Program-made: the position numbers and the translations under genes
Part shown: one piece after another, positions 21,521 to 40,975 of the stretch
How positions within the stretch are numbered: position 1 is the first letter of the stretch
How the letters are laid out: every line of letters starts with the position of its first letter
The notes under the pieces: generated by a model
What the model was told of the DNA's origin: nothing
The model's input: the letters and a program-made list of their open reading frames with translations, nothing else
The model's database searches: none
Assembly (NCBI GenBank): GCA_049322675.1
Contig: JBMORM010000025.1
Coordinates: 64,520-128,519, forward strand
Reading direction: 5' to 3'
Source of the DNA: Patescibacteria group bacterium
Lineage (GTDB): Bacteria > Patescibacteriota > JAHJAL01
Length of the DNA stretch: 64,000 bases

Positions 21521-21533
21521 AAATAGTCTATTT

Positions 21534-24586: not shown

Positions 24587-25579
24587 ATGCCGGAAACAGA
24601 TACAAAAACAAAAAAAGAAAAACCAATTGGAATTGATTTAAGTACGACAAGTATCAAATTGGTTTCATTGGATGAAAATAATATTTTGGAAGAATATGGT
24701 ATTTTTGATTTGCCGGTGAGTGCCAACGATACTGATATTATTTTGGGATTGAAAGGTTTGTTGGCTAAAAATTTTAAAAGTAAAGATGTGGTAATGGGTT
24801 TACGTGGTTTGGATGTGTTGACAAAACTGATCAAGGTAAAATATGGAGAATATGATGAAGTTGAAAAGCAAGTGGAAGAAATTGTTAAAGATATTTTGCC
24901 GGTTGATCGAAATGAGGTTGAGGTTAGTTGGGAAGTGATTGGTCAAGAAAATGAGATGGTGAATTTGTTGTTGATTATCATTCCCAATTCGGTCATTGAA
25001 CGATATGAAAGATTGATTACAGGAGCAGGTTTAAATATTTTGGCGGCCGAGATAAATTCATTGGCGATCAAACGAGCACTTGATTATGATTCCAATCAGG
25101 AGATAAAGATGATTGTTGATATACACGCTGATGAGACAAATATCGAAATATACAATCAAAGTGTTTTGAGTTTGGATAAAACTATTTCGATTGGAGGGAT
25201 GCAGATAACGCGCAATATGTCCAAGAAAATGGCGATTTCTATTCCTGAAGCCGAAAAACAAAAACGAACGAATACGACTATATCTGAAAAGATTTTTAAT
25301 GAATCATATAAGCCAGTAGGTGACGATATTTTGGCGGAAGTGGGGCGGGTAATGTCGATGGCTAGATTGGATTATGGTATCAAGGTTGGTTATATCGGTT
25401 TGAGCGGTGGTGATTTTAATGCGATTGAGTTTAGAGAATATTTTATTGATAACTTGTCTGAGTTTGCCAAAACTGAATTGTCTATTCCAAAAGCAGTGGA
25501 GTCGAGTTTAAATATTGATAAAAATAGCGGTGATAGATTGAGATTAATCAATGCTGTTGGTTTGGCGATGAAATACTAA
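24587..25579 (+). CDS. pilM: Type IV pilus assembly protein PilM (actin-like ATPase fold)
   Basis: The N-terminus reads IGIDLSTTSIKLVSLDEN. The length is 330 aa. It is the first gene of the pilMNO-pilBTC block. Confidence 0.75.
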   Translation: MPETDTKTKKEKPIGIDLSTTSIKLVSLDENNILEEYGIFDLPVSANDTDIILGLKGLLAKNFKSKDVVMGLRGLDVLTKLIKVKYGEYDEVEKQVEEIVKDILPVDRNEVEVSWEVIGQENEMVNLLLIIIPNSVIERYERLITGAGLNILAAEINSLAIKRALDYDSNQEIKMIVDIHADETNIEIYNQSVLSLDKTISIGGMQITRNMSKKMAISIPEAEKQKRTNTTISEKIFNESYKPVGDDILAEVGRVMSMARLDYGIKVGYIGLSGGDFNAIEFREYFIDNLSEFAKTELSIPKAVESSLNIDKNSGDRLRLINAVGLAMKY

Positions 25580-25676
25580 ATAAAATTTCCAATTTTCAGT
25601 TTCCGGTTTCCAATAGATATTTTGTTAGGATATTTGGGAAAAATTTAAATAAAATAAAAAATAATAATACATAAAA

Positions 25677-26339
25677 ATGGAACAAGGAAAAATTGTCTTA
25701 AATGAAAAACAGGGGAAAGAGTTGGATTTTTATCCTCCTTCGACAACCCCAGTAGTTGTTTATACAATCTTGTTGGTATTGATGGTTGCTCTTTTGGGCG
25801 GTGGTTTATATTATTTCAATTTTGATCAAACTAAAAAAATATCCGATTTGAAGTCCAAGGTGGAAATATTGGAAAATCAAATGGCCAAAGAAGATTCTGA
25901 TGGTAATTTGGTTAATCAATCTGAAAGATTGGCTAAGGCGGTAAAGAGTTACAATGCTTATAAACAAAATGATGTCAATTGGCAGTTGTTTTTGAGTCGT
26001 GTTAAGGATCAAACAATCAATGATATAACCTATACATCGTTTGCTATTGATCGGATAAAAAGCGATTTTCGGGTTGATGGAGTTGCTCCGAGTTATCGAG
26101 TGATTGCTGAGCAGATGAATATTTTTAGCAATGATCCAAATTATTCTAGTGTAAAATTGAAAACTGCGGTATTGCGTCCGGAAAGCGACAGTAGGAGCAG
26201 AGTGGCTTTCAACTTGGAACTAACACTAAAACCGGAAGCTTTTAGAAAACCAGAAGAAAAGAAAGACGTATTTGAATTGATTGGTGGTGAAAGCGATCAG
26301 ACAGTTGTTGGGGTAGAGGAAAGCGATTTGACAAAGTAA
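25677..26339 (+). CDS. pilN: PilN-like bitopic pilus assembly protein
   Basis: A single N-terminal TM helix (VVVYTILLVLMVALLGGGLYYF) is followed by a coiled coil. The call rests on its position between pilM and pilO. Confidence 0.55.
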   Translation: MEQGKIVLNEKQGKELDFYPPSTTPVVVYTILLVLMVALLGGGLYYFNFDQTKKISDLKSKVEILENQMAKEDSDGNLVNQSERLAKAVKSYNAYKQNDVNWQLFLSRVKDQTINDITYTSFAIDRIKSDFRVDGVAPSYRVIAEQMNIFSNDPNYSSVKLKTAVLRPESDSRSRVAFNLELTLKPEAFRKPEEKKDVFELIGGESDQTVVGVEESDLTK

Positions 26340-26342
26340 GAA

Positions 26343-26450
26343 TACATTAAAATTTCCAGTTTCCAATTTCCAGTTTCCAAAAAATTTCCAATTTTCAAAC
26401 AAATTAAATAATATTTCGTTTGGAAATTGAGAATTGAAAATTGGAAATTA
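26343..26450. repeat. Heptamer-based palindromic intergenic element
   Basis: The sequence is aaaatttccagtttccaatttccagtttccaaaaaatttccaattttcaaac...tttggaaattgagaattgaaaattggaaatt. It lies upstream of pilO. Confidence 0.8.
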
Positions 26451-26519
26451 GTGATATTTTTGATTGTTAGTTAAGCATTCGAATCAAAAAAATATAAATT
26501 AAAAAAAGTAATAATTAAA

Positions 26520-27095
26520 ATGGAAAAACAAACAGCTTTTAAGCTTTATGAAAAAAAACAAATACCTTTATTGATCGGCGTGATGGGAACGTTGGTAGTG
26601 GCTTTGTTGATTTCCTATTGGATTATGCCGTTGTGGAGTAGTACCAGACAAGTATTGTTGGACTATGAAAAAACTGTTTCTTTGTTGGATGCCAAGGATA
26701 AAGAGTTGAATGCGATGCAACAATTCAAGATTTATCTTAAGAAGGATTTGGACAAAGTAAATCTTTTGAATGATATCTTGCCGAAAAAAGAAAATATGGA
26801 TGATGTATTGATTCAAGTTGAAAGACTGGCGATAGATAATACCTTGTTTGTAAAAAGTGTTACTGTGACTGATGCTGGCGCTGATAGTTTATCGACTGAG
26901 GTGTCGGGAGTAGAAAAGTCGAGTGTGATCATGCAGATCGAAGGAGAATTTCCTAATGTGCTCAATTTTATTGATAGTATTCAAAAGAGTACCAGATTGG
27001 TTTTGATCAATAAGATGGGAGTGGCGAGTAATATTTCCGCTGTTGATCAACCGGTGACGTTTACGATTGATATGGATGTGCTTTATCAGAAGTAG
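26520..27095 (+). CDS. pilO: PilO-like bitopic pilus assembly protein
   Basis: An N-terminal TM helix (IPLLIGVMGTLVVALLISYWIM) is followed by a coiled coil. The call rests on position. Confidence 0.55.
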   Translation: MEKQTAFKLYEKKQIPLLIGVMGTLVVALLISYWIMPLWSSTRQVLLDYEKTVSLLDAKDKELNAMQQFKIYLKKDLDKVNLLNDILPKKENMDDVLIQVERLAIDNTLFVKSVTVTDAGADSLSTEVSGVEKSSVIMQIEGEFPNVLNFIDSIQKSTRLVLINKMGVASNISAVDQPVTFTIDMDVLYQK

Positions 27096-27107
27096 GGAAA
27101 GGAGAAA

Positions 27108-27240
27108 AATTTCCAATTTCCAATTTCCAAACATATTTTGTATGCGATATTTGGATAAAAAGACAGATTAATTTAGAAATTGGTCATTGGAAATTTATTG
27201 GAAATTGAAAATTGAAAATTGGGAATTAAAAATTTAAGAA
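27108..27240. repeat. Heptamer-based palindromic intergenic element (full-length archetype)
   Basis: The sequence is aatttccaatttccaatttccaaacatattttgtatgcgatatttggataaaaagacagattaatttagaaattggtcattggaaatttattggaaattgaaaattgaaaattgggaatt. Confidence 0.85.
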
Positions 27241-27259
27241 ATAAATTTTTGGAGTTTAT

Positions 27260-27511
27260 ATGAAAAATACGTGGATAACTGGAGGACTAGTATTATTTGT
27301 TTTGTTTTTGGCGGCGGTTGGGTCAACTTGGTATTTTTCGATTCCGTCACAGATTGAAAAACAAAGCGTGTTGGTATCTCCAAAATTATTGATTTCTAAA
27401 CCGGTTAATGACGAGATGGCCAAGGTATTAAAAGAAAGACAAAAATACGGTTCCTGGCCAATCAACGTCGAACCCGGTCGTTTGGGAAAAAATAATCCGT
27501 TTAGACAATAA
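27260..27511 (+). CDS. Small membrane protein (83 aa), candidate PilP-like component
   Basis: The N-terminus is MKNTWITGGLVLFVLFLAAVGSTWYF. It sits between the pilO-like gene and pilB. Confidence 0.35.
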   Translation: MKNTWITGGLVLFVLFLAAVGSTWYFSIPSQIEKQSVLVSPKLLISKPVNDEMAKVLKERQKYGSWPINVEPGRLGKNNPFRQ

Positions 27512-27519
27512 ATACAAAA

Positions 27520-27655
27520 TACAATTTTCAATTCTCAATTCTCAATTTTCAATTTTCAAATATATTTTGTATGTGATATTTGGATAAAGAGACAAAACAT
27601 TTGGAAATTGAATATTTTTTGGAAATTGGAAACTGAAAATTGGAAATTAAAAAAA
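27520..27655. repeat. Heptamer-based palindromic intergenic element
   Basis: The left arm is caattttcaattctcaattctcaattttcaattttcaaatatattttgtatgtgatatttggataaa. The right arm is ggaaattggaaactgaaaattggaaatt. It ends 8 nt before the pilB ATG. Confidence 0.85.
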
Positions 27656-27656
27656 T

Positions 27657-29627
27657 ATGGACAACATTTTATATAAAAATAGCTTACTGAATTTTCTGGT
27701 GATTGAGGGTAAATTGGATAAAGATCAGGCGGAGAGAATCTTGGATGAAGTAGAAAAAAGTAATCGCAGTATTGTTGATGCGATTTTGGCGAAAGCTTTG
27801 ATCGATGAAATATCTTTGCGGGACTTGTTGGCCAAGTATGCCAATTTGAAAGTTGGGGATGTGCCATATGGTTTATCTCTGAAAACCTATCAGTTTTTGA
27901 ATTTTTCCACTTCATATCGATATCGTATAGTAAGTTTTGATTTGGCTGAAGATGCGGTCAAAATTGCTTGCGACAATCCTTTGAATTTGGAAATGCAAGA
28001 AGTGATAGATTTTTTGAGTCGGGCCAGAAAGATAAAAATTGAATATTATGTGGTGACAAGATCAGAATTGATCCAGCTTTTGGCCAATTATCAAAAAATG
28101 ATGTTGGAAAGGGGATTAATAGATAAGTCGGAAATAGATATAATAAAGCAGAAATATGGTGAATTGGGTACAGATATTATTGAAGCGCCGGTTTTGAAAA
28201 ATGAAGTAAAAGAAGAGGTGATAGAACAAAAGAAGTCGGATGAAGATGAGAAAAAAATTGAGGATGCCGATTTGTTGGGTTTGGAGATAGAAGCAGAGGC
28301 GGAGGCTAGAGTTCAAGAGGTAGAAAAGGGTATGATGAGTGATGATGGCTATTCGGATGAACAGAAATCATGGTTAAAATTATTGCAGGACAAGGTCGAA
28401 TCGATCGATCAATTGAAAAAAATTATTAACTCTCGTGATATTCCTCGGATGGTGGCTAGTTTCGTTCATTATGCCATCATGATGGGAGCTTCGGATATTC
28501 ATATTGAACCGATGACTTCATCAATCAGGGTTCGTTATCGAGTGGATGGAGTTTTGCAGGAAATATTGGAATTGGATAAATCTCTTTTGCCGGCTTTGAT
28601 CTCGCGTATTAAAATTTTGGCTCTACTAAAGATAGATGAACATCGTATTCCTCAGGATGGTCAGTTTAGGGTTACTTTTGAAGGTCGGATGGTTGATTTG
28701 CGTATTTCTTCGTTGCCGACGGTTTATGGTGAAAAAGTGGTGATACGTATTTTGGATGTTTCATCGGGACGATTGACTTTGGATCAATTGGGTTTGCAAG
28801 GGATAAATAAGGATAAAGTATCAAAGAATATTTTGCGTAGCAACGGGATGATTTTGTCCACCGGTCCGACTGGAAGCGGAAAATCGACTTCATTGTTTTC
28901 GATATTGGGGATGGTGTCTTTACCCGGAGTCAATGTGGTTACTTTGGAAGATCCGGTTGAATATCACATTTCCGGAGTCAATCAAGTTCAGATTAGACCG
29001 GATATTGGATTTACTTTTGCTACTGGTTTGAGAAGTATATTGCGTCAAGATCCAAATGTGGTGATGGTGGGTGAAATCCGTGATTCAGAGACAGCCGAGT
29101 TGGCTGTCCATGCTTCTTTGACAGGTCACTTAGTATTGTCAACTTTGCATACCAACGATGCTCCTTCGGCGATTCCAAGATTGATTGATATGGGAATTGA
29201 ACCGTTTTTAATTAGTTCTTCTTTGGTGTTGGTGATGGCGCAAAGATTGGTACGAAAGGTATGTGATCATTGTCGATCCGAAATCGAGGTCCCGGCGGAG
29301 AAGGCCAATGAGATAATTGAATATTTGCATAATGTACCGAAAGAACATATAGAAAAATTGGGTCTGGATTTGGCTAAACCAAAATTTTATCGCGGGTTGG
29401 GTTGTACATATTGTCACAATAGTGGTTATAAAGGTAGGATGGGTGTTTTTGAAGTTTTGGAGATGACTGAGACATTACATGATCTGACAATTAAAAAATC
29501 ATCAGGTGTAGATATTTTTAATCAAGCGGTCAATGAAGGAATGATCACAATGAGACAGGACGCTTTTATGAAAGCATTGCAAGGGATTACGACGTTGGAT
29601 GAGGTTTATAGGGTAACGACAAAGTAA
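27657..29627 (+). CDS. pilB: Type IV pilus assembly ATPase PilB (GspE family)
   Basis: The Walker A box is GPTGSGKST. The tetracysteine motif is CDHC...CTYC. An N-terminal GSPII_E-N-like domain is present. The length is 656 aa. Confidence 0.9.
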   Translation: MDNILYKNSLLNFLVIEGKLDKDQAERILDEVEKSNRSIVDAILAKALIDEISLRDLLAKYANLKVGDVPYGLSLKTYQFLNFSTSYRYRIVSFDLAEDAVKIACDNPLNLEMQEVIDFLSRARKIKIEYYVVTRSELIQLLANYQKMMLERGLIDKSEIDIIKQKYGELGTDIIEAPVLKNEVKEEVIEQKKSDEDEKKIEDADLLGLEIEAEAEARVQEVEKGMMSDDGYSDEQKSWLKLLQDKVESIDQLKKIINSRDIPRMVASFVHYAIMMGASDIHIEPMTSSIRVRYRVDGVLQEILELDKSLLPALISRIKILALLKIDEHRIPQDGQFRVTFEGRMVDLRISSLPTVYGEKVVIRILDVSSGRLTLDQLGLQGINKDKVSKNILRSNGMILSTGPTGSGKSTSLFSILGMVSLPGVNVVTLEDPVEYHISGVNQVQIRPDIGFTFATGLRSILRQDPNVVMVGEIRDSETAELAVHASLTGHLVLSTLHTNDAPSAIPRLIDMGIEPFLISSSLVLVMAQRLVRKVCDHCRSEIEVPAEKANEIIEYLHNVPKEHIEKLGLDLAKPKFYRGLGCTYCHNSGYKGRMGVFEVLEMTETLHDLTIKKSSGVDIFNQAVNEGMITMRQDAFMKALQGITTLDEVYRVTTK

Positions 29628-29629
29628 AT

Positions 29630-29760
29630 TTCCAATTCTCAATTTCCAATTTCCAAACATATTTTGCATACGATATTCGGATAAAAAAATGATAATTTGG
29701 AAATTGATCATTGGAAATTTATTGGAAATTGAGAATTGAAAATTGGAAATTAATAATAAA
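29630..29760. repeat. Heptamer-based palindromic intergenic element
   Basis: It is near-identical to the 27108 copy (core ccaaacatattttgcatacgatattcggataaaaaaa; right arm ttggaaattgatcattggaaatttattggaaattgagaattgaaaattggaaatt). It lies immediately upstream of pilT. Confidence 0.85.
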
Positions 29761-29764
29761 AAAT

Positions 29765-30853
29765 ATGCTTACATCACAAAAATTTAATTCTGACGAAAGT
29801 TCTCTTTTAGAAGAGTTGTTGGATATTGCGATTAAAGAAAACGCATCCGATATCCATATTGTCGCGGACAATTATCCGGTGATTCGGGTAGATGGCGATT
29901 TGAAATATTTGGAAAAATATGACAAATTGTCTTCTTCTTCGACGGCGCAACTTTGTTATGCAATGATGGACGAGAGGCAACGCGAACGGTTGATTCAAGT
30001 ACGGGAAATTGATTTCTCGTTTCCTTATAAAGAATCATATCGTTTTCGAGCAAATATATTTTATCAAAAGGGAACCGTCTCTGCGGCTTTGCGTTTGATC
30101 AAGTCGATGGAACGCACTTTTGATGAATTGGGTTTGCCACCGATAGTTGAAAGATTTACCAAGTTGTCACATGGTTTGGTCTTGGTGACCGGGCCAACCG
30201 GACATGGAAAATCAACTACGTTGGCTTCTTTGATCAATACTATCAATAAAAATCGCCAAGATCATATTATTACCATTGAAGATCCGATTGAAAATATTTT
30301 CAACAGTCATCAAAGTTTGATTGTGCAAAGAGAAATTCCGCATGATTCGCATGATTTCGCTTCGGCTTTGCGAGCGGCCTTGCGTGAAGATCCGGATGTG
30401 GTTTTGATTGGTGAAATGCGTGATTTGGAAACTATTTCGGCAGCTTTGACGGTGGCGGAAACCGGGCATTTGGTGTTTGGTACTTTGCATACCAATGATG
30501 CTGCTCAGACGGCGGATCGTATTATTAACGTTTTTCCATCTCATCAACAACAGCAAGTGCGAACGATATTGGCCAATGTGTTTGAAGGTGTTTTGTCACA
30601 GAGATTACTCAAGAAAAAAGGTGGTGGTCGTATCGCGGCTTGCGAAATCATGACCGGAAGCATGGCAGTGCGATCTCTGATTCGTGAAGGCAAAGCTCAC
30701 CAGTTGCAAGGTGTTATTCAAACCAGCGCCGCCGATGGAATGATTACTTTGGACAAATCTTTGGCCGACTTGGTAAAACGGGGAATTGTTGATCTCGACG
30801 AAGCCTTGATGTGGGCGATTGATCAGGACAACCTTAAAACTATGATTGCATAG
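29765..30853 (+). CDS. pilT: Twitching-motility retraction ATPase PilT
   Basis: The protein reads MLTSQKF...DIHIVADNYPVIRVDGDL and has Walker A box GPTGHGKSTT. The ORF track starts at 29711, which reads through the heptamer repeat (WKLRIENWKL), so the true ATG is at 29765. Confidence 0.85.
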   Translation: MLTSQKFNSDESSLLEELLDIAIKENASDIHIVADNYPVIRVDGDLKYLEKYDKLSSSSTAQLCYAMMDERQRERLIQVREIDFSFPYKESYRFRANIFYQKGTVSAALRLIKSMERTFDELGLPPIVERFTKLSHGLVLVTGPTGHGKSTTLASLINTINKNRQDHIITIEDPIENIFNSHQSLIVQREIPHDSHDFASALRAALREDPDVVLIGEMRDLETISAALTVAETGHLVFGTLHTNDAAQTADRIINVFPSHQQQQVRTILANVFEGVLSQRLLKKKGGGRIAACEIMTGSMAVRSLIREGKAHQLQGVIQTSAADGMITLDKSLADLVKRGIVDLDEALMWAIDQDNLKTMIA

Positions 30854-30962
30854 GGAAAAATTTCCAATTTTCAATTTCCAGTTTTCAAACATATTTTGAA
30901 TTCGATATTTGGAAATTGGACATTGAAAATTTATTGGAAATTGAGAATTGGAAATTATAATG
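30853..30962. repeat. Heptamer-based palindromic intergenic element
   Basis: The sequence is tttccaattttcaatttccagttttcaaacatattttgaattcgatatttggaaattggacattgaaaatttattggaaattgagaattggaaatt. It lies upstream of pilC. Confidence 0.85.
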
Positions 30963-30999
30963 AATTAAATAGAAAAATAAAAATAATATTGAAAACTGT

Positions 31000-32202
31000 A
31001 TGAGCGAATATTTATTTGAAGCGAAAACATTGAGTGGGGAAAAAGTAGCTGGCATGCTGGAAGCCGATAGCATGAAGGATGCTTTGGAAATGCTCAAGCA
31101 ACAAAACTATACTCCGATGGCTTTGGAAAAGAAAAGAGCCATGTGGGATTCTATTACCAATATTTTGAATCGGGTTTCGGTATCGGATTTGGCTGTTTTT
31201 GCTCGACAGTTGGCGATTATGGTTGAAGCTGGTTTTCCTTTGATTCAGGCGATCAAGACGTCCGTCAATCAGACTCGAAATGAAAAATTGAGAGAGACTT
31301 TGGCTTTGATGGCGGTTGATTTGGAATCTGGTTTGAGTTTGTCGATGTCCACCGCCAAACATCCGGAAATTTTTTCCCGATTTGTGGTCAATATGATTCG
31401 TTCTGGTGAGGAAACCGGTCAGTTGAATAAGGTTTTGCGAGAAGTGGCAGAGGAATTGGAAAAACAAAAAGGCTATCAATCGAAAATCAATAGTGTTTTG
31501 ATGTATCCGATATTTGTTTTGGTGATGATGGTGGCGGCAATGATTGTGGTGATGGTGTATGTTATTCCCCAGTTAAAATCTTTGTTTGAAGATTTGGGAG
31601 CGGAGTTGCCGATTGCTACCAAAATTTTAATATGGACAAGTGATTTTGCCGTTAACTATTGGTATATCGTAGTGATTATTACTGCTTTGGTAGTGGCTGC
31701 GATTGTCAGTTTCTTGCGTTCGGATTATGGTCGGGAATGGAAAGATAAATATATACTCAAAGTTCCGGTGGTTGGCAAATTGGTTTTGATGTCGTCGATG
31801 ATGAGATTTTCTCGGACTTTTGGAATGTTGGTGGAAGGTGGAATCGCTATTTTGGATGCGATTGAGATTACCGCTGGAGTTATGGAAAATTCAAATTTTA
31901 AAAAAGCGATAAGAGGATGTTCAGTTTATGTTGAAAAAGGTATTCCTTTTTCCAGTCCGTTAAAAAGAAATAACATATTTCCGATTGTGGTTGGTCAGAT
32001 GGTAGCTATCGGCGAACAATCCGGTCAATTGGCCAAGGCGATGGATAACTTGTCAAAATATTTTGAAGAAGAAACTGATACGATGATAAAGGGTGTGTTT
32101 TCATTGTTTGAACCGTTGATGTTGGTAATAGTTGGTTTGGGCGTTGGTGGTTTGGTGTTTGCTGTCTTGCTGCCAGTGTTTCAGGCGTCGCAAGTACTAT
32201 AA
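31000..32202 (+). CDS. pilC: Type IV pilus inner-membrane platform protein PilC (GspF family)
   Basis: The protein is 400 aa with two GspF repeats and three TM segments (for example, MYPIFVLVMMVAAMIVVMVYVIP). Confidence 0.85.
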   Translation: MSEYLFEAKTLSGEKVAGMLEADSMKDALEMLKQQNYTPMALEKKRAMWDSITNILNRVSVSDLAVFARQLAIMVEAGFPLIQAIKTSVNQTRNEKLRETLALMAVDLESGLSLSMSTAKHPEIFSRFVVNMIRSGEETGQLNKVLREVAEELEKQKGYQSKINSVLMYPIFVLVMMVAAMIVVMVYVIPQLKSLFEDLGAELPIATKILIWTSDFAVNYWYIVVIITALVVAAIVSFLRSDYGREWKDKYILKVPVVGKLVLMSSMMRFSRTFGMLVEGGIAILDAIEITAGVMENSNFKKAIRGCSVYVEKGIPFSSPLKRNNIFPIVVGQMVAIGEQSGQLAKAMDNLSKYFEEETDTMIKGVFSLFEPLMLVIVGLGVGGLVFAVLLPVFQASQVL

Positions 32203-32315: not shown

Positions 32316-32756
32316 ATGCGTAAAATTTCTTTTGAGCGCTCAAAAGGTTTTACCCTTGTCGAGTTGATGGTTGTAATTGCCATTATTGGTATTTTGGCCG
32401 TCGCCGCATTGGGTATCGTCCGTGGAGCTCAACAAAAAGCTGTTAATGCAGCTGTTCAAGCTTCAGCTTCAAATTTGTCAACTGCCGTTGAAACATATTA
32501 TACACAAGAAGGACATTATCCTTCTACTGCTGGTTTGATGACGGAGTTGGTTGATACTGCTAAAGTAATTAATCGTCCTATCACTTTGCCAACACAGTGC
32601 AATGATGGTGATATTCAGACAGCTGCTTTGACTGCAACCGATACAGGAGTTTGCGGTATTCAGTATACTCAAGGATCAACAAGTCAATCTTATACCATTA
32701 ATGTTAAATTATTGGGTAAGGGTGCTTTGGAAGAACCTATTACCGGTGGTCAGTAA
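32316..32756 (+). CDS. pilA: Type IV major pilin (class III signal peptide)
   Basis: The N-terminus is MRKISFERSKG|FTLVELMVVIAIIGILAVAAL, the canonical prepilin cleavage site with Glu at +5. The length is 146 aa. Confidence 0.85.
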   Translation: MRKISFERSKGFTLVELMVVIAIIGILAVAALGIVRGAQQKAVNAAVQASASNLSTAVETYYTQEGHYPSTAGLMTELVDTAKVINRPITLPTQCNDGDIQTAALTATDTGVCGIQYTQGSTSQSYTINVKLLGKGALEEPITGGQ

Positions 32757-32842
32757 TTAATTAGCATTTCACGGAGATTCAGGATTTTTCCTGGATCTTC
32801 GGAAAATACTAATTAATATATTTTAATACAATAAGTGATGTC

Positions 32843-32895
32843 ATTCTGGAGCCGGAAGCGTACTCGCATTCCGACATCCAGAATCCAGGATTTTA
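32843..32895. repeat. Hairpin repeat (GTCATTCTGGAGCCGGAAGCGTACTCGCATTCCGACATCCAGAATCCAGGA), copy 1
   Basis: It recurs at about 33837-33889 and 37231-37285. It folds into an imperfect hairpin of about 50 nt. Confidence 0.55.
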
Positions 32896-33048
32896 ATTTC
32901 CAATTTTCAATTCTCAATTTTCAACAAATTCTCAATTTCCAATTTCCAAACAAATACAGGCAACAATTATTATGAATTTGAGTTCGTTTGAAAATTGGTC
33001 ATTGGACATTTTTTGGAAATTGGAAACTGGAAATTGAAAATTGAATAT
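32893..33048. repeat. Heptamer-based palindromic intergenic element (ccaaacaaata...gcaacaattatta subfamily)
   Basis: It shares the core ccaaacaaatacaggcaacaattattatgaatttgagttcgtttgaaaattggtcattgg with the 37270-37440 copy. It lies upstream of pilD. Confidence 0.8.
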
Positions 33049-33050
33049 TT

Positions 33051-33806
33051 ATGAATATCATAATCTTCACAATCGGCTTACTCTTCGGTAGCTTTTTGAA
33101 TAGCTTTATCTGGCGCTATCGGAAGAATGTTTTGGAGACTATCTGGAGTGGGCGTTCGATTTGTCCGGCTTGTGGTCATGCTTTGTCTCCCAATGATTTG
33201 GTGCCTTTATTTAGTTTTCTGGTGTTGGGTGGCAAGTGCCGGTATTGTAAAAGTCCGATCAGTTGGCAGTATCCGATGGTAGAATTGTTTTTTGGTCTTT
33301 TGTCATTTTTGATTTTTTGGAAATTTGGCTTGGAATTTTCATTTATTTTTTATCTAATCATTGGTTTTTTACTGACAGCGTTGATGGTGATTGATATTTT
33401 GGATGGTATCTTGCCCAATGGTCTTATTGTGATTACGATTTTTGTCTGGTTGCTATATATGATATTTACCAAAGCCAATGTCTATGATTGGACCAATGTG
33501 GTTTTTGCAGCTTTGATCGGTTTTGGTTTCTTTTTGTCAATCTGGTTGATTACGTTGGGAAAAGGCATGGGAGTAGGGGATATCAAGTTGGCGTTGCTGC
33601 TTGGTTTATTGGCGGGAATCCCCAATATCTACTATATTATTTTCTTTGCATTTATCCTGGGCGCTCTATATGTTTTGCCATTGCTTTTACTCGGGAAATC
33701 GAAATGGAAAAACCCAATTGCCTTCGGACCGTTCCTTATTCTTTCTTACTTTTTGATGCTGTTCATGGGAAATGAGATTCAATTGGTGTTTTTGAGAATG
33801 TTTTAA
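33051..33806 (+). CDS. pilD: Prepilin peptidase (A24 family) PilD
   Basis: The N-terminal zinc module is CPACGHAL...CRYCKS. It has eight TM segments. The catalytic aspartates are in GVGDIKLALL. Confidence 0.85.
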   Translation: MNIIIFTIGLLFGSFLNSFIWRYRKNVLETIWSGRSICPACGHALSPNDLVPLFSFLVLGGKCRYCKSPISWQYPMVELFFGLLSFLIFWKFGLEFSFIFYLIIGFLLTALMVIDILDGILPNGLIVITIFVWLLYMIFTKANVYDWTNVVFAALIGFGFFLSIWLITLGKGMGVGDIKLALLLGLLAGIPNIYYIIFFAFILGALYVLPLLLLGKSKWKNPIAFGPFLILSYFLMLFMGNEIQLVFLRMF

Positions 33807-33836: not shown

Positions 33837-33961
33837 TGTCATTCTGGAGCCGAAAGCGTAATCGCGTTTCGACATCCAGAATCCAGAAAGAAAAAATTTA
33901 ATAAATTAAGGAAATGGATCCTGGATATTGGAGCGGATTACCTTCCAGTTCCAGGATGACA
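33837..33961. repeat. MITE-like element with terminal inverted repeats TGTCATTCTGGA...TCCAGGATGACA (hairpin repeat copy 2 plus the GGATCCTGGATATTGGAGCGGATTACCTTCCAGTTCCAGGATGACA half-element)
   Basis: The two ends are reverse complements of each other. The right half recurs at 35650-35700. The left half recurs at 32843-32895 and 37231-37285. Confidence 0.5.
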
Positions 33962-34003
33962 CAGATTAGTATGTTTAAAAATTAAAAATTAAAAATTAAA
34001 AAT

Positions 34004-35623
34004 TTGAGTACAGATATGTTTTCCAAAATAAACACAAAAGTAAAAAAAATGTTTAAAGACTTGTATCGGTCTTCTTCCGGTATGACTTTGATTGAGATTC
34101 TTGTCGCTTGCGCTATTATCGTGATCTTGATGGGTGTGACGATGATTTCGTTGCCACGTTATCGTGATAGTCAGACTTTGGAACAGTTTTCCAAGGATGT
34201 CAATGATAGTCTGCGTCAGGCTCAGACGTGGGCTTTATCCCCCAATGTGCCCAAGGCGGAATATTATGTATGGGATATCAAGACGGGGGCGGCGGACGAT
34301 GATCAATGTCCAAATCGACAATATATCGGAGTGATGGCGGATGTGGAAGATGCATATGAAAAGAAGACTTGTTTGGATGATAAAGTAAATTTAAAGGCGG
34401 AAAATATTGGTCCGTTGTATTTTGAGGTCAAGACCGGAAAAATTTTCAATGATGAAGCTTTGACCACTCCGGCCAATGGAAAATTGACCATGGAGCATGA
34501 TAATCATCCCGGTGATTTAGGTTTGTATTATGAAATCAATGTGGCGGCGGATACATTTTCTTTGGGAAAAGAAGTAGTGAGCGGGGATCAAGGTGGTTTG
34601 ACCTTGGCTTGCGGCAATGGTGAGTGCGAGGCGGAAAAAGGTGAAAAATGCGGAACTTGCGGTGACTGTGAATGTCTTTGTCCAAATGACGGTTTGCAAT
34701 ATTGTAGTCAGCAAAGTTGTCCATCGGCCAATTGGTATGATGGTTCTTGTCACGAATTGGCAAAACCAAGCGCGACTTGCGGTGATGGCGATCGTCAACC
34801 GGGTGAGGTCTGTGATGATGGAAATGTGTCTGGTGGTGATTATTGTTCAGCGGATTGCCAGGAGGTAACAGGAGTTTGTGGCGATGGTCAAAAACAAGGA
34901 AGCGAAAGATGTGACGATGGGGCAAACAATGGAAAATATGGTTATTGTAATGCCAATTGTTCAGCCCAGATAAAATGTGGCGACGGGACTGTACAAACTT
35001 CAAATGAGTCTTGTGATGATGGCTCAGCCAATGGCACTTATGGAAAATGCAATACTTCTTGCAGCGCGGTTTTGCGTTGTGGAGATCAAATAATTACTTC
35101 CCCCGAGGTTTGCGATGATGGAGATTTAAACGGAACCAATGGGAAATGTAATCGAGAATGTAGCGGTATTTTGCGTTGCGGAGACGGAGTAGTGACTAGT
35201 CCTGAAGCTTGTGACGATGGTCAGGCCAACGGTCAATACAATAAATGTAATAGTGATTGTACAGCGGTTTTGAAATGTGGTGATGGAATACCTCAGACTC
35301 AGTTTGGTGAAGTGTGCGATAGCGGCACAGCCAATGGAACAGCGATTGGAAAGTGTAATACTCAGTGTACCGGATTGTTGCGTTGCGGAGATAGAATTGT
35401 AACTGCACCCGAAGTCTGTGACGAAGGAAATCTCAATGGTACCTCAGGACATTGCAATACTAGCTGTTCGGCAATAATAACATTGCGTGATGGTAGTCAG
35501 TGTTCGGCTAGCAATCAGTGTCAAAGTGGTTTGTGCGCCGCGTGGTATGGTTCAAGTAATTTTACTTGTGTGAATTCTTTTTATAGAAATTATTGCGGTT
35601 ATTCGTTTATTACTTGTAAATAA
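34004..35623 (+). CDS. Prepilin-like protein fused to a Cys-rich CGDG/CDDG repeat domain, a candidate pilus-associated adhesin
   Basis: The internal ATG near 34049 gives the leader MFKDLYRSSSG|MTLIEILVACAIIVIL, a class III signal. At least eight tandem modules of about 35 aa follow, of the type CGDG.....CDDG..NG.YG.CN..C. The C-terminus is a Cys-knot-like tail. Confidence 0.6.
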   Translation: MSTDMFSKINTKVKKMFKDLYRSSSGMTLIEILVACAIIVILMGVTMISLPRYRDSQTLEQFSKDVNDSLRQAQTWALSPNVPKAEYYVWDIKTGAADDDQCPNRQYIGVMADVEDAYEKKTCLDDKVNLKAENIGPLYFEVKTGKIFNDEALTTPANGKLTMEHDNHPGDLGLYYEINVAADTFSLGKEVVSGDQGGLTLACGNGECEAEKGEKCGTCGDCECLCPNDGLQYCSQQSCPSANWYDGSCHELAKPSATCGDGDRQPGEVCDDGNVSGGDYCSADCQEVTGVCGDGQKQGSERCDDGANNGKYGYCNANCSAQIKCGDGTVQTSNESCDDGSANGTYGKCNTSCSAVLRCGDQIITSPEVCDDGDLNGTNGKCNRECSGILRCGDGVVTSPEACDDGQANGQYNKCNSDCTAVLKCGDGIPQTQFGEVCDSGTANGTAIGKCNTQCTGLLRCGDRIVTAPEVCDEGNLNGTSGHCNTSCSAIITLRDGSQCSASNQCQSGLCAAWYGSSNFTCVNSFYRNYCGYSFITCK

Positions 35624-35649: not shown

Positions 35650-35700
35650 AGTGGATCCTGGATATTTGAACGGATTACCTTCCTAGTTCTAAGGATGACA
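35650..35700. repeat. Half-element repeat GGATCCTGGATATTTGAACGGATTACCTTCCTAGTTCTAAGGATGACAG (copy of 33916-33961)
   Basis: It is about 85% identical to the right half of the 33837-33961 element. Confidence 0.5.
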
Positions 35701-35845
35701 GAAAGGAAATTTCCAATTTTCAATTCTCAATTTCCAAACATATTTTGTAATCGATATTAGTAAAAAAAATAATTGAAAATTGTATCATTGGAAATTGGAA
35801 ATTTAATGAAAATTGAAAATTGGAAATTGAAAATTAAAGAATAAA
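35700..35845. repeat. Heptamer-based palindromic intergenic element
   Basis: The left arm and core read tttccaattttcaattctcaatttccaaacatattttgtaatcgatatt. The right arm is ggaaattggaaatttaatgaaaattgaaaattggaaattgaaaatt. Confidence 0.8.
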
Positions 35846-35846: not shown

Positions 35847-36416
35847 ATGCAATACAAACATCAAAATAAAAAAAATCTTAACTCGCAACGAGGCTTTGGA
35901 CTCATCGAGGTCATCGTCGGTATTGCCATGTTGCTGATCACGGCCACGGCCGCATTATCGATTGCGCATTTTACGACCAAAGCGGAACGATACAATGAAA
36001 AACGTATTGTCGCTTACAATCTGGCACAGCAGGTAGTGGAAGAAGTTCGTCGTCAACGTGATAGTGCGTGGGATGATTTCAAATCCGATACCAGATGGGA
36101 GAGTACGACCGGCGAGATCGTAGTGGACAATTTAAATAATTTTTACTTGAATGGTTCGACGGGTGATGGGTGCGTGAGTGGTGGAACAGGAATGATTGAT
36201 TGCACGATTGGCGGAAGTGATTTTGATATCGAAGTCCAAACTGAAGCTTTGGGCGACGTGATCAGCAAATTGCACGGGCATGATATAGACGGAACCGACG
36301 ATATGGCCGACTCAGTGGCGCGACGTGTTTACGTCGATGTCACTTGGACAGACGCGGGAACAGATAGAAATTTGACAATAGTGACATTGCTGACAGACTG
36401 GAAGCCGATGATATAA
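35847..36416 (+). CDS. Minor pilin / pseudopilin (class III signal)
   Basis: The N-terminal signal is QRG|FGLIEVIVGIAMLLITATAAL. The length is 189 aa. Confidence 0.65.
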   Translation: MQYKHQNKKNLNSQRGFGLIEVIVGIAMLLITATAALSIAHFTTKAERYNEKRIVAYNLAQQVVEEVRRQRDSAWDDFKSDTRWESTTGEIVVDNLNNFYLNGSTGDGCVSGGTGMIDCTIGGSDFDIEVQTEALGDVISKLHGHDIDGTDDMADSVARRVYVDVTWTDAGTDRNLTIVTLLTDWKPMI

Positions 36417-36424: not shown

Positions 36425-36585
36425 GAAATTTTCAATTTTCAATTCTCAATTTCCAAACGATATTTTGTTAGGATATTAGAAAGAAAAAAATATCAAAAAA
36501 AAGTTGAAAATTGTATTTGTTTGAAAATTGGTCATTGGAAATTTATTGGAAATTGGAAACTGGAAATTGGAAATTTAAAAAAAGT
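36425..36585. repeat. Heptamer-based palindromic intergenic element
   Basis: The left arm and core read ttttcaattttcaattctcaatttccaaacgatattttgttaggatatt. The right arm is ttgaaaattggtcattggaaatttattggaaattggaaactggaaattggaaattt. Confidence 0.8.
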
Positions 36586-36587: not shown

Positions 36588-37226
36588 ATGCAAAATAAAA
36601 ATATGAAAAATAATGAAATGTGGATTGACAATAAAGGTTTCACCCTAGTTGAAGTATTGGTCGCTATGACCGTCTTTATCATCGCGTCGATCATGTTTAT
36701 GTCCACTTTTAATCTGGTGAGCCAGACTACGATGCGGGTGGAGAGTTCGCGGTTGGCGCAACAGGATGCACGTTATGCGATTGAACAGATTTCGCGGGAA
36801 ATTCGCAATGGTTGGGATTTTGAAGTGCGTAATCCGACCGGAGCTCAAGAAGGGAAGGCTTTGTTTTACGCCACCAGTGATACAAATGGCAACGAACAAC
36901 ATTATCTGATATCCGAGCAATATTTGGAAAATGATACTCGCACGATTGTGCGACAACTTGTTGATTCAAACGGAAATCCAACTGGCGGCAGTACGCCTTT
37001 GCCAATGCTTTCCACGGTAGTCGGTTTGACCGACAAAACCGAAGGCGCGGACGATGGCGGCCTACGTTTTCGCCTGATCGAACCCGCCAGCGAATACCCG
37101 GCAGTGGAAATCGAAATGACCGTCCAAAGGGAAAACGCGGAAAGATTTTCCAAACCGTTGTCAGTCATTACACGGGTTACGAGTAGGATGAGGGGGGAGG
37201 AATTAAAAAGTCGGAATGAAGGTTAA
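36588..37226 (+). CDS. Minor pilin, PilW/PulJ-like
   Basis: The N-terminal signal is NKG|FTLVEVLVAMTVFIIASIMF. The length is 212 aa. Confidence 0.65.
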   Translation: MQNKNMKNNEMWIDNKGFTLVEVLVAMTVFIIASIMFMSTFNLVSQTTMRVESSRLAQQDARYAIEQISREIRNGWDFEVRNPTGAQEGKALFYATSDTNGNEQHYLISEQYLENDTRTIVRQLVDSNGNPTGGSTPLPMLSTVVGLTDKTEGADDGGLRFRLIEPASEYPAVEIEMTVQRENAERFSKPLSVITRVTSRMRGEELKSRNEG

Positions 37227-37285: not shown

Positions 37286-37440
37286 CTTAATTTCCAATTT
37301 CCAGTTTCCAATTTCCAGTAAATGCTCAATTTCCAATTTCCAAACAAATATTAAGCAACAATTATTATTAATTTGAATTCGTTTGAAAATTGGTCATTGG
37401 AAATTTATTGGAAACTGGAAATTGTGAATTGGAAATTTCT
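37270..37440. repeat. Heptamer-based palindromic intergenic element (same subfamily as 32893)
   Basis: The left arm is ttaatttccaatttccagtttccaatttccagtaaatgctcaatttccaatttccaaacaaatattaagcaacaattattattaatttgaattcgtttgaaaattggtcattggaaatttattggaaactggaaattg. Confidence 0.8.
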
Positions 37441-37445: not shown

Positions 37446-37790
37446 TCATTTCTTATTGAGTGAGTTAACAATTTTTTGAAAGATCATATTCAGTTGCTGA
37501 CTTTCTTGATAGAGTTTTTGAATTTCTACTCTATTATCTAGTTCACTTGAATACAGCATTTTGAGCCAATATTTTGTTTCATTCGTTTCTTTTTTGCAAA
37601 TAAATATTTTGTTTTTAAAATCTCGTTTTGAACTTGAATCATTGGCTTCATGATAATTTGCTCCGATACTTGTTCCTGAACGTATGACTTGATTGATTGT
37701 GTTTTTATTGATTATGTTGATTTTTATAGATTTGCAAAGACTAATTATTTTTATTCCAAAATCTGATGTTCGTTTTTCCAAATTGTACAT
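37446..37790 (-). CDS. Four-helix-bundle protein (TIGR02436 family, the type found in 23S rRNA intervening sequences)
   Basis: The protein carries the family signature SGTSIGANYHEANDSSSKRDFKNKIFICKKETNETKYWLKML. It is the only minus-strand gene inside the pilus island. Confidence 0.7.
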   Translation of the reverse strand: MYNLEKRTSDFGIKIISLCKSIKINIINKNTINQVIRSGTSIGANYHEANDSSSKRDFKNKIFICKKETNETKYWLKMLYSSELDNRVEIQKLYQESQQLNMIFQKIVNSLNKK

Positions 37791-37942
37791 GGATTGTTGT
37801 TAAAAAGTATTTATAATTACTTATAACAAATCTCGATTAACTAGAAATTAATAAAAATTTAAAATTAGATTATCGTTTGGAAATTGGTCATTGGAAATTT
37901 ATTGGAAATTGGAAACTGAAAATTGGAAATTAATAAACAACT

Positions 37943-38947
37943 ATGTTTACAAAACTAAAAAAAATATTAATAAATGACGATCGCGGATCAGCGATCATCC
38001 TCGCTTTAATAATAATAGCTGCCTTGGCTACCACCGGTATCGGCGCGGCCCGTTTGACCAAATCCAATATCTCGCAAACCACCAGTTTTGAAGACGGTCT
38101 CAAGGCTTACTATGCGGCGGAAGCGGGGGTGGAGGCGGCGCTGCTGGAATGGCGGTTTGATCATGATGTGGAGTTTTGGAACGCGGACAAAGCGCGGACT
38201 TGTTACAACGCCGTCAAATCCAGCCCGGATACTTTGGATGATCCTAGTTGTGAGTTGGCCAAGATGACAAGGATTGTTAATCTGCAGGGGAAAGCGGGGG
38301 AGAACCCGGTGGATATTACGAACAATAAGTTTGATGCTGAGGGGAATGTTACCAATGAGGATTACAAGGGTCCGACCAATCAACCTTGGTATGAGTTGAA
38401 GATTTATTATCGAGATCCGAAGAGACCAATAATTGGCAATCAAGATAATCCCAAGGATTTGACAAAAAATCCTGTTTACATTGATAAAGATCAAACTTAT
38501 GAGGTTAAATTTCCAGTAAGTGATAATGTTAGAAGTTTATATTTGCAATGGGCAAATAAAAATAATCCTGATGTTACAAAATTAATGTGGCATCCCATAG
38601 CTGAAAAGAATGGACAGGATACAATAATTGATATGGCGGCAAATAGATATTATAGCCAAGACTTTGAGTATAATTTTCCTGTAATAGTTGATAGTAATTA
38701 TTCTTCGGGCTTAAAAAGTCTGAGAGTTAAATGTTTATCTGACAATCAGGGAGTATATTTATCTTTATATGCTGAAGACGAGAATTTTGAGGTTGTCCAT
38801 TTACCTACTGATGAAGTGAATATTGAAGTGGTTGGACATTATAATAATACGGAAAGAAAAATTACTTATAAATTATCCAGACAGGCAGGTACCATTATGG
38901 ATATTTTTGATTTTGGAGTATTTTCTCAGAGTAGTTTAAGAAAATAA
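37943..38947 (+). CDS. PilX-like minor pilin (334 aa)
   Basis: The N-terminus DDRGSAIILALIIIAALATTGIGAARL is a PilX-type hydrophobic segment. Confidence 0.55.
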   Translation: MFTKLKKILINDDRGSAIILALIIIAALATTGIGAARLTKSNISQTTSFEDGLKAYYAAEAGVEAALLEWRFDHDVEFWNADKARTCYNAVKSSPDTLDDPSCELAKMTRIVNLQGKAGENPVDITNNKFDAEGNVTNEDYKGPTNQPWYELKIYYRDPKRPIIGNQDNPKDLTKNPVYIDKDQTYEVKFPVSDNVRSLYLQWANKNNPDVTKLMWHPIAEKNGQDTIIDMAANRYYSQDFEYNFPVIVDSNYSSGLKSLRVKCLSDNQGVYLSLYAEDENFEVVHLPTDEVNIEVVGHYNNTERKITYKLSRQAGTIMDIFDFGVFSQSSLRK

Positions 38948-40538: not shown

Positions 40539-40834
40539 AAAACATCATCCTTTCATTCGAAAAATTCTGCCAACCAATCCAGGGGCTGGCTGTTCTGGGT
40601 CACATGAAACACCGCTGTGTAACTTTTTTCTGTTTCCTCGAAGACTTTCGGAAATCCGTCTGTTGAGGAAAAGAAAAAAATAATTGTTAGAAAAATCATC
40701 AAGAAGACTTTTTTCAACTTTTCTCACATCCCTTCTTTTTGTTTATTTAAAAAATTTTAATTTAATACAAAAATTTTGGCTTCTTGTCTTTTTTTAATTT
40801 TTGACAAAGAAACCGAGAAATAGACAGAATATTA

Positions 40835-40975
40835 ATTTCCAGTTTCCAATTTCCAAGTTCCAAAGAATTTCCAATGATCAATTTCTAAACCTTTTTGATA
40901 TATCCGAATATTTTAACGATATATTGTTTGAAAATTGAGAATTGAAAATTGGAAATTGCATTTCTGTCTGTTTCC
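40835..40975. repeat. Heptamer-based palindromic intergenic element
   Basis: The left arm is aatttccagtttccaatttccaagttccaaagaatttccaatgatcaatttc. The right arm is tttgaaaattgagaattgaaaattggaaattg. Confidence 0.75.

Follow-up and report, generated by a model that had tools for sequence, protein, structure and literature searches.

Modular pilins are defined as proteins in which a pilin module is joined to at least one extra module whose signature is not specific to type IV filaments (PMC8179133). In S. sanguinis they act in adhesion, and they occur widely; CPR bacteria are included and prominent in the survey, which lists 264 modular-pilin architectures (Raynaud et al. 2021, PMC8179133). Little is known of how the ultrasmall, obligately episymbiotic Patescibacteria (CPR) locate their hosts and stay attached to them, and among the candidates for this role type IV pili have the best support (PMC11623550). 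Saccharibacteria require minor pilins with accessory domains for host binding, and PilX1 and PilX2 of Nanosynbacter lyticus TM7x provide the precedent, backed by genetics, for CPR type IV pili that bind a host (PMC11623550). CPR genomes are also enriched in an MdbA-like oxidoreductase and VKOR, and a role in pilin folding has been suggested for both (bioRxiv 10.1101/335083). Here, a prepilin gene with a long cysteine-rich extension was analysed in a pilus operon of a Patescibacteria group bacterium. The window, i.e. the whole stretch of DNA analysed, comprised 64,000 nucleotides of contig JBMORM010000025.1.

An ORF scan of the window gave an uninterrupted plus-strand reading frame at 34004-35623. 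Within this frame the gene was assigned to 34016..35623 (+; ATG to TAA stop, 535 aa), and its product is identical to NCBI MFZ5392520.1, which carries the name 'prepilin-type N-terminal cleavage/methylation domain-containing protein'. A 539-aa product starting at TTG 34004 and a start at the internal ATG 34049, both put forward in an earlier sequence-only reading, were replaced accordingly. Translation most likely starts at ATG 34016 (MFSKINTK...), because orthologues begin with M(FS)KINTKIK and lack a Met corresponding to 34049. Sequence 5' of ATG 34016 is not conserved in the related Patescibacteria locus L003. Relative to L003, dN/dS was 0.46 in the 22-aa leader and stayed within 0.01-0.22 in each module of the mature protein. 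These ratios indicate purifying selection over the full length of the gene and a coding sequence that is real and constrained. Antisense ORFs within the gene (34536-35003, 34517-34798 and others) were dismissed as by-products because of the sense-strand dN/dS of 0.01-0.22 over the mature protein. Promoter and terminator scans gave no signal better than that of shuffled sequences.

The gene lies in a complete pilMNO-pilB-pilT-pilC-pilin-pilD operon and is followed by three further minor pilin genes, all on the plus strand. The assembly machinery block (24587..32202) was assigned by Pfam as PilM (24587-25579), PilO (26520-27095), PilB (27657-29627), PilT (29711-30853) and PilC (31000-32202), and a PilN-like gene (25677-26339) was assigned by position and by the weak PilN match of the syntenic gene in locus L001. 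It is followed by a GspG/PilA-like major pilin candidate of 146 aa (32316..32756; MRKISFERSKG|FTLVELMVV; PF07963, 9e-10) and by pilD (33051..33806; PF06750, 3.9e-29; PF01478, 1.1e-11), which encodes a prepilin peptidase/N-methyltransferase and presumably processes the modular prepilin. The position right after pilD had been pointed out before and was borne out, with pilD immediately upstream. The same slot directly 3' of pilD was occupied in six loci (the window and Patescibacteria loci L001, L002, L003, L004 and L005). The earlier doubt that homologues might occur only outside pilus loci was removed: all homologues with readable context were found in pilus operons directly after pilD. Downstream of the modular pilin gene are minor pilins of 189 aa (35847..36416; PF07963; weakly PilV/GspI-like, TIGR02523 and TIGR01707 below cut-offs) and 212 aa (36588..37226; PF07963; weakly ComGF/GspJ-like, NF041002 and TIGR01711 below cut-offs). 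A 334-aa protein (37943..38947) with a hydrophobic N-terminus lacking Glu+5 and a faint GspK match (E 0.011) is, on sequence, a possible GspK/PilX-like tip subunit. Locus L004 carries a 346-aa ORF at the equivalent position. The 64-kb window showed no gene for a disulfide oxidoreductase, and the PilY1-type family was absent from the Pfam matches of the ORFs scanned at 19255-44456.

The N-terminal part of the 535-aa protein has the features of a prepilin. A basic leader of 22 aa (MFSKINTKVKKMFKDLYRSSSG; 34016..34081, +; pI 10.3, 6 K/R) ends in Gly-1, and its KINTKIK and terminal SG are conserved among orthologues. The other pilins of the operon have leaders of 11-17 aa. In the context ...RSSSG|MTLIEILVACAIIVILMGV, the cleavage site combines Gly-1, Met+1, Glu+5 and about 20 hydrophobic residues after the basic leader. 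The motif G|MT(L/M)(I/V)E is invariant in orthologues. When 12 homologues were aligned, Glu+5 was invariant in 12/12 pilin-module family members, as were LPxYR and W86, and Gly-1 was present in every member that retained a leader; Gly-1 is only nearly invariant because one truncated entry has no leader. The Pfam N_methyl model PF07963 scored 25.0 bits (cut-off 21.2). TIGR02532 scored 18.1 on the N-module alone and 16.2 on the full ORF, against a cut-off of 16.3. The class III signal described earlier was thus upheld by PF07963 and by the invariant cleavage motif, and the upstream ATG, which had been seen as a possible threat to the pilin N-domain, just makes the basic leader longer, at 22 aa, without disturbing the cleavage site.

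The pilin module proper (mature residues 1-176; 34082..34609, +) consists of the hydrophobic alpha1-N helix MTLIEILVA... with Glu+5, followed by a globular beta-sheet head. An AlphaFold2 model of the module (pLDDT 81.2, pTM 0.68) contained a helix at 25-74 and then 8 beta strands, i.e. the predicted fold is a pilin "lollipop". Foldseek searches with the AlphaFold2 models of the pilin module and the repeat array found no significant match among solved structures, and in PDB sequence searches similarity to geopilins and PilA/PilE was confined to alpha1-N. Taken together, the pilin identity of the protein is well supported.

By gene order the protein may resemble GspH, FimU and PpdA, since it is the first of a four-gene minor-pilin block whose downstream GspI/PilV-, GspJ/ComGF- and GspK-like members match weakly, below cut-offs. 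PpdA and GspH were the best NCBIfam matches of all 12 family members, both sub-threshold (NF007800, 31.2 bits vs cut-off 158; TIGR01708, 26.5 vs 80). When the family profile was compared with nine E. coli (pseudo)pilins using hhalign, PpdA was best, with 93.9% probability via the helix only; a head-only profile gave probabilities of <3% against E. coli PpdA, GspH and the other pilins. A GspH/FimU/PpdA identity was rejected, as the curated cut-offs were missed and the similarity was gone without the alpha1 helix. GspH and FimU also have no C-terminal extension, unlike the window protein.

The extension beyond the pilin head comprises 337 aa with 44 Cys, 34 D/E vs 15 K/R and a pI of 4.1. The even number of Cys is compatible with complete disulfide pairing. 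It begins with a Cys-rich linker of 56 aa and 10 Cys (CGNGECEAEKGEKCGTCGDCECLCPNDGLQYC...WYDGSCHEL; 34610..34777, +) with 98% identity to L003, 82% to L002 and dN/dS of 0.02-0.08. Linker-like CxxGxCxxxxxExCxxCxxDC mini-modules are present in other family members, and AlphaFold2 confidence over the linker was low. Seven tandem DUF4215/TIGR02232 units follow (34778..35482, +; aa 255-489 counted from ATG 34016), at 34778-34876, 34877-34975, 34976-35077, 35078-35176, 35177-35275, 35276-35383 and 35384-35482 (+). Each unit has 33-36 aa and 4 Cys in the arrangement CGDG-x(6-9)-C-D-D-G-x(6-9)-C-x3-C, and the seven-unit region has a pI of 4.1. The units share 38-70% identity at the protein level and 44-62% at the DNA level. 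Recent duplication or slippage-prone repeats were rejected, as Tandem Repeats Finder detected no DNA-level array within the gene.

DUF4215 (PF13948) was matched with 32.1 bits (cut-off 27) and TIGR02232 (myxo_disulf_rpt) with 52.9 bits (cut-off 20.8; E 2e-14; 6 stretches). Because both lie above curated cut-offs, the repeats are no chance pattern, and the likeness to known extracellular Cys-rich repeats suggested earlier was given a name by these HMM searches. A self-built HMM delimited 7 repeat domains (E 1e-15 to 1e-21). By HMM and unit boundaries the array therefore has seven canonical units, where at least eight had been counted in the first reading. To reach eight, the preceding 56-aa Cys-rich linker (CGNGECEAEKGEKCGTCGDCEC...) has to be accepted as a degenerate unit. 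The AlphaFold2 model of the array (per-unit pLDDT 70-86, pTM 0.32) is consistent with a string of units that each fold on their own. Its sole PDB fold matches were weak ones to single PAPP-A repeats, on which single units superposed over 37 columns (rmsd 2.2 A, 46% identity), although the match as a whole was not significant. The protein ends in a tail of 46 aa with 6 Cys (LRDGSQCSASNQCQSGLCAAWYGSSNFTCVNSFYRNYCGYSFITCK; 35483..35620, +). Its motif DGxxCxxxxQCxSGxC...C[KSTE]-end is common to long family members with very different middle arrays. A Cys-knot-like tail had been proposed; the conserved Cys-rich tail was found, and the knot fold had backing from no model, with AlphaFold2 pLDDT over the tail below 50-55. 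The initial observation was thus partly confirmed, i.e. apart from the start codon, the repeat count and the Cys-knot tail, and the earlier interpretation as a pilin with repeats is supported.

Relatives of the pilin module were collected by an exhaustive HMMER scan. A word-index search with the N-module alone gave no match despite the presence of P0001 at 91% identity, and its profile version also missed orthologues. The relatives are few, forming about 10 clusters at 50% identity, and are either bare (~190-208 aa) or carry other Cys-rich arrays on the same chassis; most long relatives finish in the same small Cys-rich tail. Bare homologues exist, and the extension is therefore dispensable for the core role of this minor pilin. 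Comparison of repeat number across orthologous loci, recommended in the earlier reading, revealed variation in DUF4215 copy number (7, 5-6 or 3). Between the window and L002, the distal repeats and tail had 38-45% identity and the proximal parts 73-82%. Elsewhere the middle cassettes are GCTDxxAxNYNxxAxxDDGSCxY units (without Pfam model) in some lineages and CGDGxCxxxENxxxCxxDC units in others. Homologues of the repeats only are far more numerous (4490) and are mostly secreted Myxococcota proteins. Among the best 120 repeat homologues, three had a pilin N-terminus and all three were orthologues; the remainder had ordinary signal peptides combined with PA14/fibro-slime, RCC1 or FG-GAP domains.

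With PF07963 and PF13948/TIGR02232 in one polypeptide, the protein falls within the definition of a modular pilin. Like S. sanguinis PilB (pilin + vWA) and PilC (pilin + lectin), it has a class III pilin module fused to a module that is not pilus-specific, is encoded in a pilus operon with monoderm-type machinery without secretin, and has a predicted tip location and binding role. Unlike in these proteins, the graft consists of about nine small disulfide-rich units (linker, seven DUF4215 units and tail) and not of one globular domain. TM7x PilX1 and PilX2 come from the same superphylum and are likewise minor pilins with large C-terminal accessory domains (PMC11623550). Those domains are lectin-like, of beta-jelly-roll or beta-propeller type, and the proteins are PilX-type, whereas the window protein carries Cys-rich repeats and occupies the first minor-pilin slot after pilD; homologue searches found no sequence relationship between them. 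The array itself resembles the DUF4215/TIGR02232 'Myxococcus cysteine-rich acidic repeat' proteins, secreted or surface proteins with tandem acidic units of four Cys and ~33 aa. Carriers of such repeats include Myxococcota fibro-slime proteins, PAPP-A and the diatom trail protein Ca5255. To the PilY1/PilC tip adhesins of type IVa pili there is only a functional analogy, that of a large attachment protein presented by a minor-pilin tip complex; PilY1 itself does not belong to the pilins, and its defining feature is a beta-propeller at the C-terminus.

With moderate confidence, we favour a modular minor pilin that is processed by PilD and, close to the pilus tip, presents an acidic stalk stapled by disulfides, with which a host or surface would be recognised. 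PilD, encoded just upstream, would cleave after Gly22 and methylate Met23, and the subunit would use its alpha1 helix to join the filament, along with the three minor pilins encoded downstream. From its joining minor pilins in a GspH-I-J-K-like gene order, the subunit would be located at or just below the pilus tip. Gene order is the sole basis for this filament position, because the GspH/FimU assignment fails curated cut-offs and vanishes without the alpha1 helix. The filament body would have no room for so bulky an extension. The extension would fold oxidatively on the outer side of the membrane, form up to 22 disulfides and project as an acidic, protease-resistant, semi-rigid stalk. Stalk and distal tail may then touch a ligand on a surface or host cell, after which PilT-driven retraction would draw the tiny cell onto its host. 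The stalk-bearing pilin is probably a host-binding tool of the ultrasmall CPR cell; its adhesin role is one that we infer. Across the family, pilin chassis and tail appear to be kept and the middle array exchanged, as expected of a module that determines specificity or sets length.

It is rather unlikely, in our estimate, that the protein is a genuine minor pilin with a passive extension (a spacer or stalk, a retraction stopper or a Ca2+-binding stabiliser) and that another subunit, such as the 334-aa GspK-like protein, does the binding. Such a role would fit a DUF4215 array without known function or ligand, units that are predicted to be simple and independent with no evident pocket, and a uniformly acidic region. 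The proximal units, at dN/dS 0.01, are under the strong constraint expected of a scaffold, bare homologues do without the extension, and the host-binding minor pilins of Saccharibacteria are PilX-type. However, the distal repeats and tail diverge faster than the chassis, and the whole array is swapped between lineages, which a specificity element fits better than an inert spacer; in the modular pilins studied so far, moreover, it is the grafted module that does the binding.

The link of CPR type IV pili to DNA uptake, and sub-threshold matches of the N-module to ComGD/ComGE and to type II secretion pseudopilins, would suit a pilus that serves mainly in competence or as a secretion-type filament, with the subunit acting in that role and not in adhesion. 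This appears improbable: the strong acidity of the extension is unfavourable for DNA binding, PilT in the operon points to a retractile pilus, and the ComG and Gsp matches are far below cut-offs and limited to the alpha1 helix. In a further reading, the hydrophobic segment is an uncleaved signal-anchor and tethers to the membrane a surface protein with no relation to the filament. A 22-aa leader, long for a type IVa pilin, and a prepilin cleavage that is predicted from sequence could be reconciled with this reading, but it is very improbable given Gly-1 in all leader-bearing members, Glu+5 in every aligned member, N_methyl HMMs above cut-offs, leaders also on the other pilins of the operon, the fixed place after pilD in all six loci and the predicted lollipop fold.

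Modular pilins are already established and the NCBI label is already prepilin-type, so that the concept is unchanged: the favoured modular minor pilin is one more example and no new kind of system. Its value lies in a specific lead and in the description of a small family architecture. More speculatively, and on balance doubtfully, the Patescibacteria-specific family may form a combinatorial display, with a conserved chassis and a terminal Cys-rich cap and, between them, interchangeable disulfide-stapled cassettes. If so, the type and number of cassettes would determine how far the pilus tip reaches and what it recognises, and in this way which hosts the episymbiont can use, much as exchanged modules do in the receptor-binding fibres of phages. 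DUF4215, a widespread repeat, would gain a defined and experimentally tractable display context, and a minor pilin with a long, lineage-variable, disulfide-rich array is a concrete, clonable candidate for host recognition by these bacteria.

The modular prepilin gene lay in a single open frame (window 34004-35623, +), and its product matched the PF07963 prepilin N-methylation motif at 25.0 bits (cut-off 21.2). The sequence-only reading had taken the class III signal from an internal ATG near 34049. This start was abandoned, since a Met at that position was absent from the three full-length orthologues (P0001, P0002 and P0003; 93%, 59% and 58% identity) and the product from ATG 34016 was identical to the 535-aa NCBI protein MFZ5392520.1, located on a 192.6-kb MAG contig. 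The orthologue N-termini read M(FS)KINTKIK, and in L003, the locus of a 91% relative, the region upstream of the Met at 34016 was unrelated to the window. Together with the exact database match, these observations place the predicted start at ATG 34016, with a basic leader (pI 10.3) of 22 aa ending in SSSG and followed by MTLIEIL. Leaders of the other pilins of the operon were likewise long (11-17 aa). Alignment of the pilin module from 12 family members showed Glu+5, an LPxYR motif and Trp86 to be invariant, and Gly-1 was kept by every member that still had a leader. The proposed class III signal was thus upheld. The earlier reading had named an upstream start combined with an unprocessed site as grounds for its refutation; only the upstream start is borne out, and it leaves the cleavage site unweakened. 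Identity of the product as a pilin is considered very probable.

The gene was the ninth of a co-directional block encoding PilM, a PilN-like protein, PilO, PilB, PilT, PilC, a 146-aa major pilin, PilD and the modular prepilin. Three genes came next, two for N_methyl pilins (189 and 212 aa) and one for a 334-aa product whose hydrophobic N-terminus has no Glu+5. Best matches of these three products, all weak and sub-threshold, were PilV/GspI, ComGF/GspJ and GspK, respectively. The related loci came from Patescibacteria group MAGs. The PilM to PilD order was complete in L001; L004 had it too and also kept the three genes downstream. L003 retained the upstream order PilB-PilT-PilC-pilin-PilD, PilD preceded the homologue in L002, and in L005 a bare 192-aa version occupied the slot after pilD. 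All homologues with a readable neighbourhood lay directly after pilD, as claimed for the window, and therefore do not occur only outside pilus loci. The window had a GC content of 36.6% and contained housekeeping genes, 6S RNA (4118-4273, -; 59.4 bits vs 46.4) and, at 3853-3923, 7794-8991 and 50655-50727, six tRNA genes in all (two for Thr and one each for Pro, Tyr, Trp and Glu).

Several neighbouring genes were recorded separately. Directly 5' of pilM were eleven co-directional ORFs (9085-24458, +), all with signal-peptide-like or single-TM N-termini and none with a Pfam match at E <= 0.001. Two of the eleven encoded large Cys-rich proteins, one of 1017 aa with 30 Cys (15376-18429, +) and one of 985 aa with 22 Cys (21501-24458, +). 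A 1421-aa gene without Pfam match likewise lay 5' of pilM in L001. The ORFs upstream of pilM may encode envelope or pilus-associated proteins. A PF05635 gene (23S rRNA-intervening-sequence-protein family) lay within the minor-pilin block in reverse orientation (37446-37790, -) and recurred beside the homologous minor pilin in L005 (8862-9218, -). A putative 493-aa lipoprotein (39057-40538, -; N-terminal LALGVAVGCGGGG), whose gene converges on the end of the pilus block, combined an NHL repeat with a long Pro/Thr-rich linker. The gene at 42156-43517 (-) encoded a radical SAM / SPASM-domain enzyme, and the small protein encoded beside it (41585-42151, -) showed a weak CxxCxxCC motif; the two may form a peptide-maturation pair.

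Nearly all intergenic spacers of the window contained two tandem heptamer arrays in inverted orientation, (AATTTCC)n immediately 3' of the stop codon and (GGAAATT)n immediately 5' of the next start. Between the two lay a short AT-rich core, for example ACAATTATTATGAATTTGA. Examples are 7695-9180, 25597-27642, 29633-30950, 32893-33043, 35706-35838, 36425-36576, 37287-37437, 37875-37933, 40833-40958, 49574-49712 and 50625-50769. TTGGAAATTGGAAAYTG (<=2 mismatches) matched 78 times in the window vs 0.31 expected. Spacers of L003 had a matching layout with a different ~10-nt unit (CTCTTTGAAA / TTTAAAAGAG); close relatives thus share the architecture but differ in the repeat unit. The arrays could be promoter or terminator cruciforms, or protein-binding arrays. 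The spacer between pilD and the modular prepilin gene was the sole operon spacer without GGAAATT arrays and carried (TTAAAAA)4 instead. Two families of GC-richer hairpins were present in the operon spacers. Type 1 followed the major pilin gene and pilD (32842-32884 and 33840-33882; -21.3 and -18.9 kcal/mol, z -3.5 and -4.7), the copies differing by a compensatory A-U to G-C change. Type 2 formed a direct repeat flanking the modular prepilin gene (33916-33962, 35653-35700); its upstream copy folded well (-22.6 kcal/mol, z -3.2), and the downstream one was degenerate. An exact type 2 31-mer also lay between pilin and pilD in L001 (9026-9056). Possible roles of both types are as terminators, as attenuators or as REP-like elements.

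Beyond the pilin module, the product matched DUF4215 (PF13948; 32.1 bits, cut-off 27) and the TIGR02232 "cysteine-rich acidic repeat" (52.9 bits vs 20.8, E 2e-14, six stretches), which confirmed the CGDG/CDDG modules. With PF07963, three curated models exceeded their cut-offs, so the reported motif is real, far beyond chance. Units were delimited by cutting the protein sequence at every CGD[GQR]. This gave seven units of 33-36 aa with four Cys each (CGDG-x6-9-CDDG-x6-9-C-x3-C), and an HMM built from them recovered exactly seven domains (E 1e-15 to 1e-21). Of the "at least eight" modules claimed, seven canonical ones stood; an eighth is reached only by counting the preceding 56-aa, 10-Cys linker. 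Identity between units was 38-70% for protein and only 44-62% for DNA, and Tandem Repeats Finder saw no DNA-level array in the gene. A slippage-prone tract was rejected on these grounds. Judged by their divergence, the repeats are old.

An exhaustive HMMER scan with the pilin module alone against 1.84 billion representatives gave 43 matches, of which only ~10 spanned the globular head. Bare members (P0123, P0125, P0129 and P0165; 192-208 aa) consisted of the pilin module without extension. DUF4215 units numbered seven in the window, P0001 and L003, five to six in P0002 and three in P0003, where CSDGxQYC repeats followed; the repeat number thus varies among orthologues, as had been put forward for checking. 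In P0121, P0126, P0127 and L010 (455-1640), GCTDxxAxNYNxxAxxDDGSCxY repeats and CGDGxCxxxENxxxCxxDC mini-modules took the place of DUF4215, and L012 is likewise listed for these units. Neither type matched a Pfam model; they are possibly undescribed disulfide-rich repeat families. Other Cys-rich stretches were present in P0122, P0124 and P0163. Most long members shared the tail motif DGxxCxxxxQCxSGxC...C[K/S/T/E]-COOH, and the Cys count of the extension was even in eight of nine members (44 in the window). Identity between window and L002 was 73-82% in pilin module, linker and first two repeats and 38-45% in repeats 3-7 and tail. The Cys-rich extension is modular and variable across lineages. 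Pilin plus DUF4215 occurred in only three clusters among the best 120 of 4490 repeat homologues.

Against L003, dN/dS was 0.12 in the pilin module, 0.02 in the linker, 0.01 in repeats 1-2, 0.07 in repeats 3-7, 0.22 in the tail and 0.46 in the short 22-aa leader; dS was ~0.3-0.5 in each mature-protein module and 0.09 in the leader. The gene is constrained, and its Cys-rich extension is under purifying selection. Antisense ORFs inside it were dismissed as by-products, given the sense-strand dN/dS.

AlphaFold2 with the 12-sequence alignment predicted a classical pilin lollipop (pLDDT 81.2, pTM 0.68; helix 25-74, then eight strands). The 340-aa extension, modelled with 41 aligned sequences, reached a per-repeat pLDDT of 70-86 and a pTM of 0.32, with linker and tail below 50; such a model is expected of units that fold independently and are strung together. 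Foldseek against the PDB returned no significant match for the head; for the repeats it returned only weak matches of single units to PAPP-A (46% identity over 37 columns, rmsd 2.2 A, E ~2). Best NCBIfam matches of all 12 members were PpdA (NF007800) and GspH (TIGR01708), far below cut-offs. Of nine E. coli pilins compared by hhalign, PpdA ranked top (93.9% probability, 89 columns), and with alpha1 removed none of the nine exceeded 3%. The protein was therefore not assigned to the GspH/FimU family, and the likeness to GspH/FimU rests on gene order.

PilD would process the prepilin, which would then join the filament end with other minor pilins; a location near the pilus tip is moderately favoured. 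The extension would fold oxidatively with up to 22 disulfides, a plausible step in view of the enrichment of MdbA-like oxidoreductase and VKOR in genomes of CPR bacteria (bioRxiv 10.1101/335083). The acidic stalk would project and touch a host or surface, and PilT-driven retraction would then draw the cell in. A role in adhesion or recognition is put forward tentatively, its main rival being a passive stalk or stopper. DNA binding by the extension is unlikely because of its charge (pI 4.1). Conservation of Gly-1 and Glu+5, together with the fixed slot after pilD, makes an uncleaved signal-anchor unlikely. Precedents for the proposed mechanism are S. sanguinis PilB and PilC, a survey that lists >1200 modular pilins of 264 architectures, many of them CPR proteins (PMC8179133), and Saccharibacteria, where host binding requires accessory-domain minor pilins (PMC11623550). 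The modular-pilin concept, the DUF4215/TIGR02232 repeat family and a generic NCBI label on MFZ5392520.1 are already known. New are the pilin plus DUF4215 architecture and the account of a small Patescibacteria family in which chassis (the pilin module) and tail are constant and the Cys-rich cassettes swappable.
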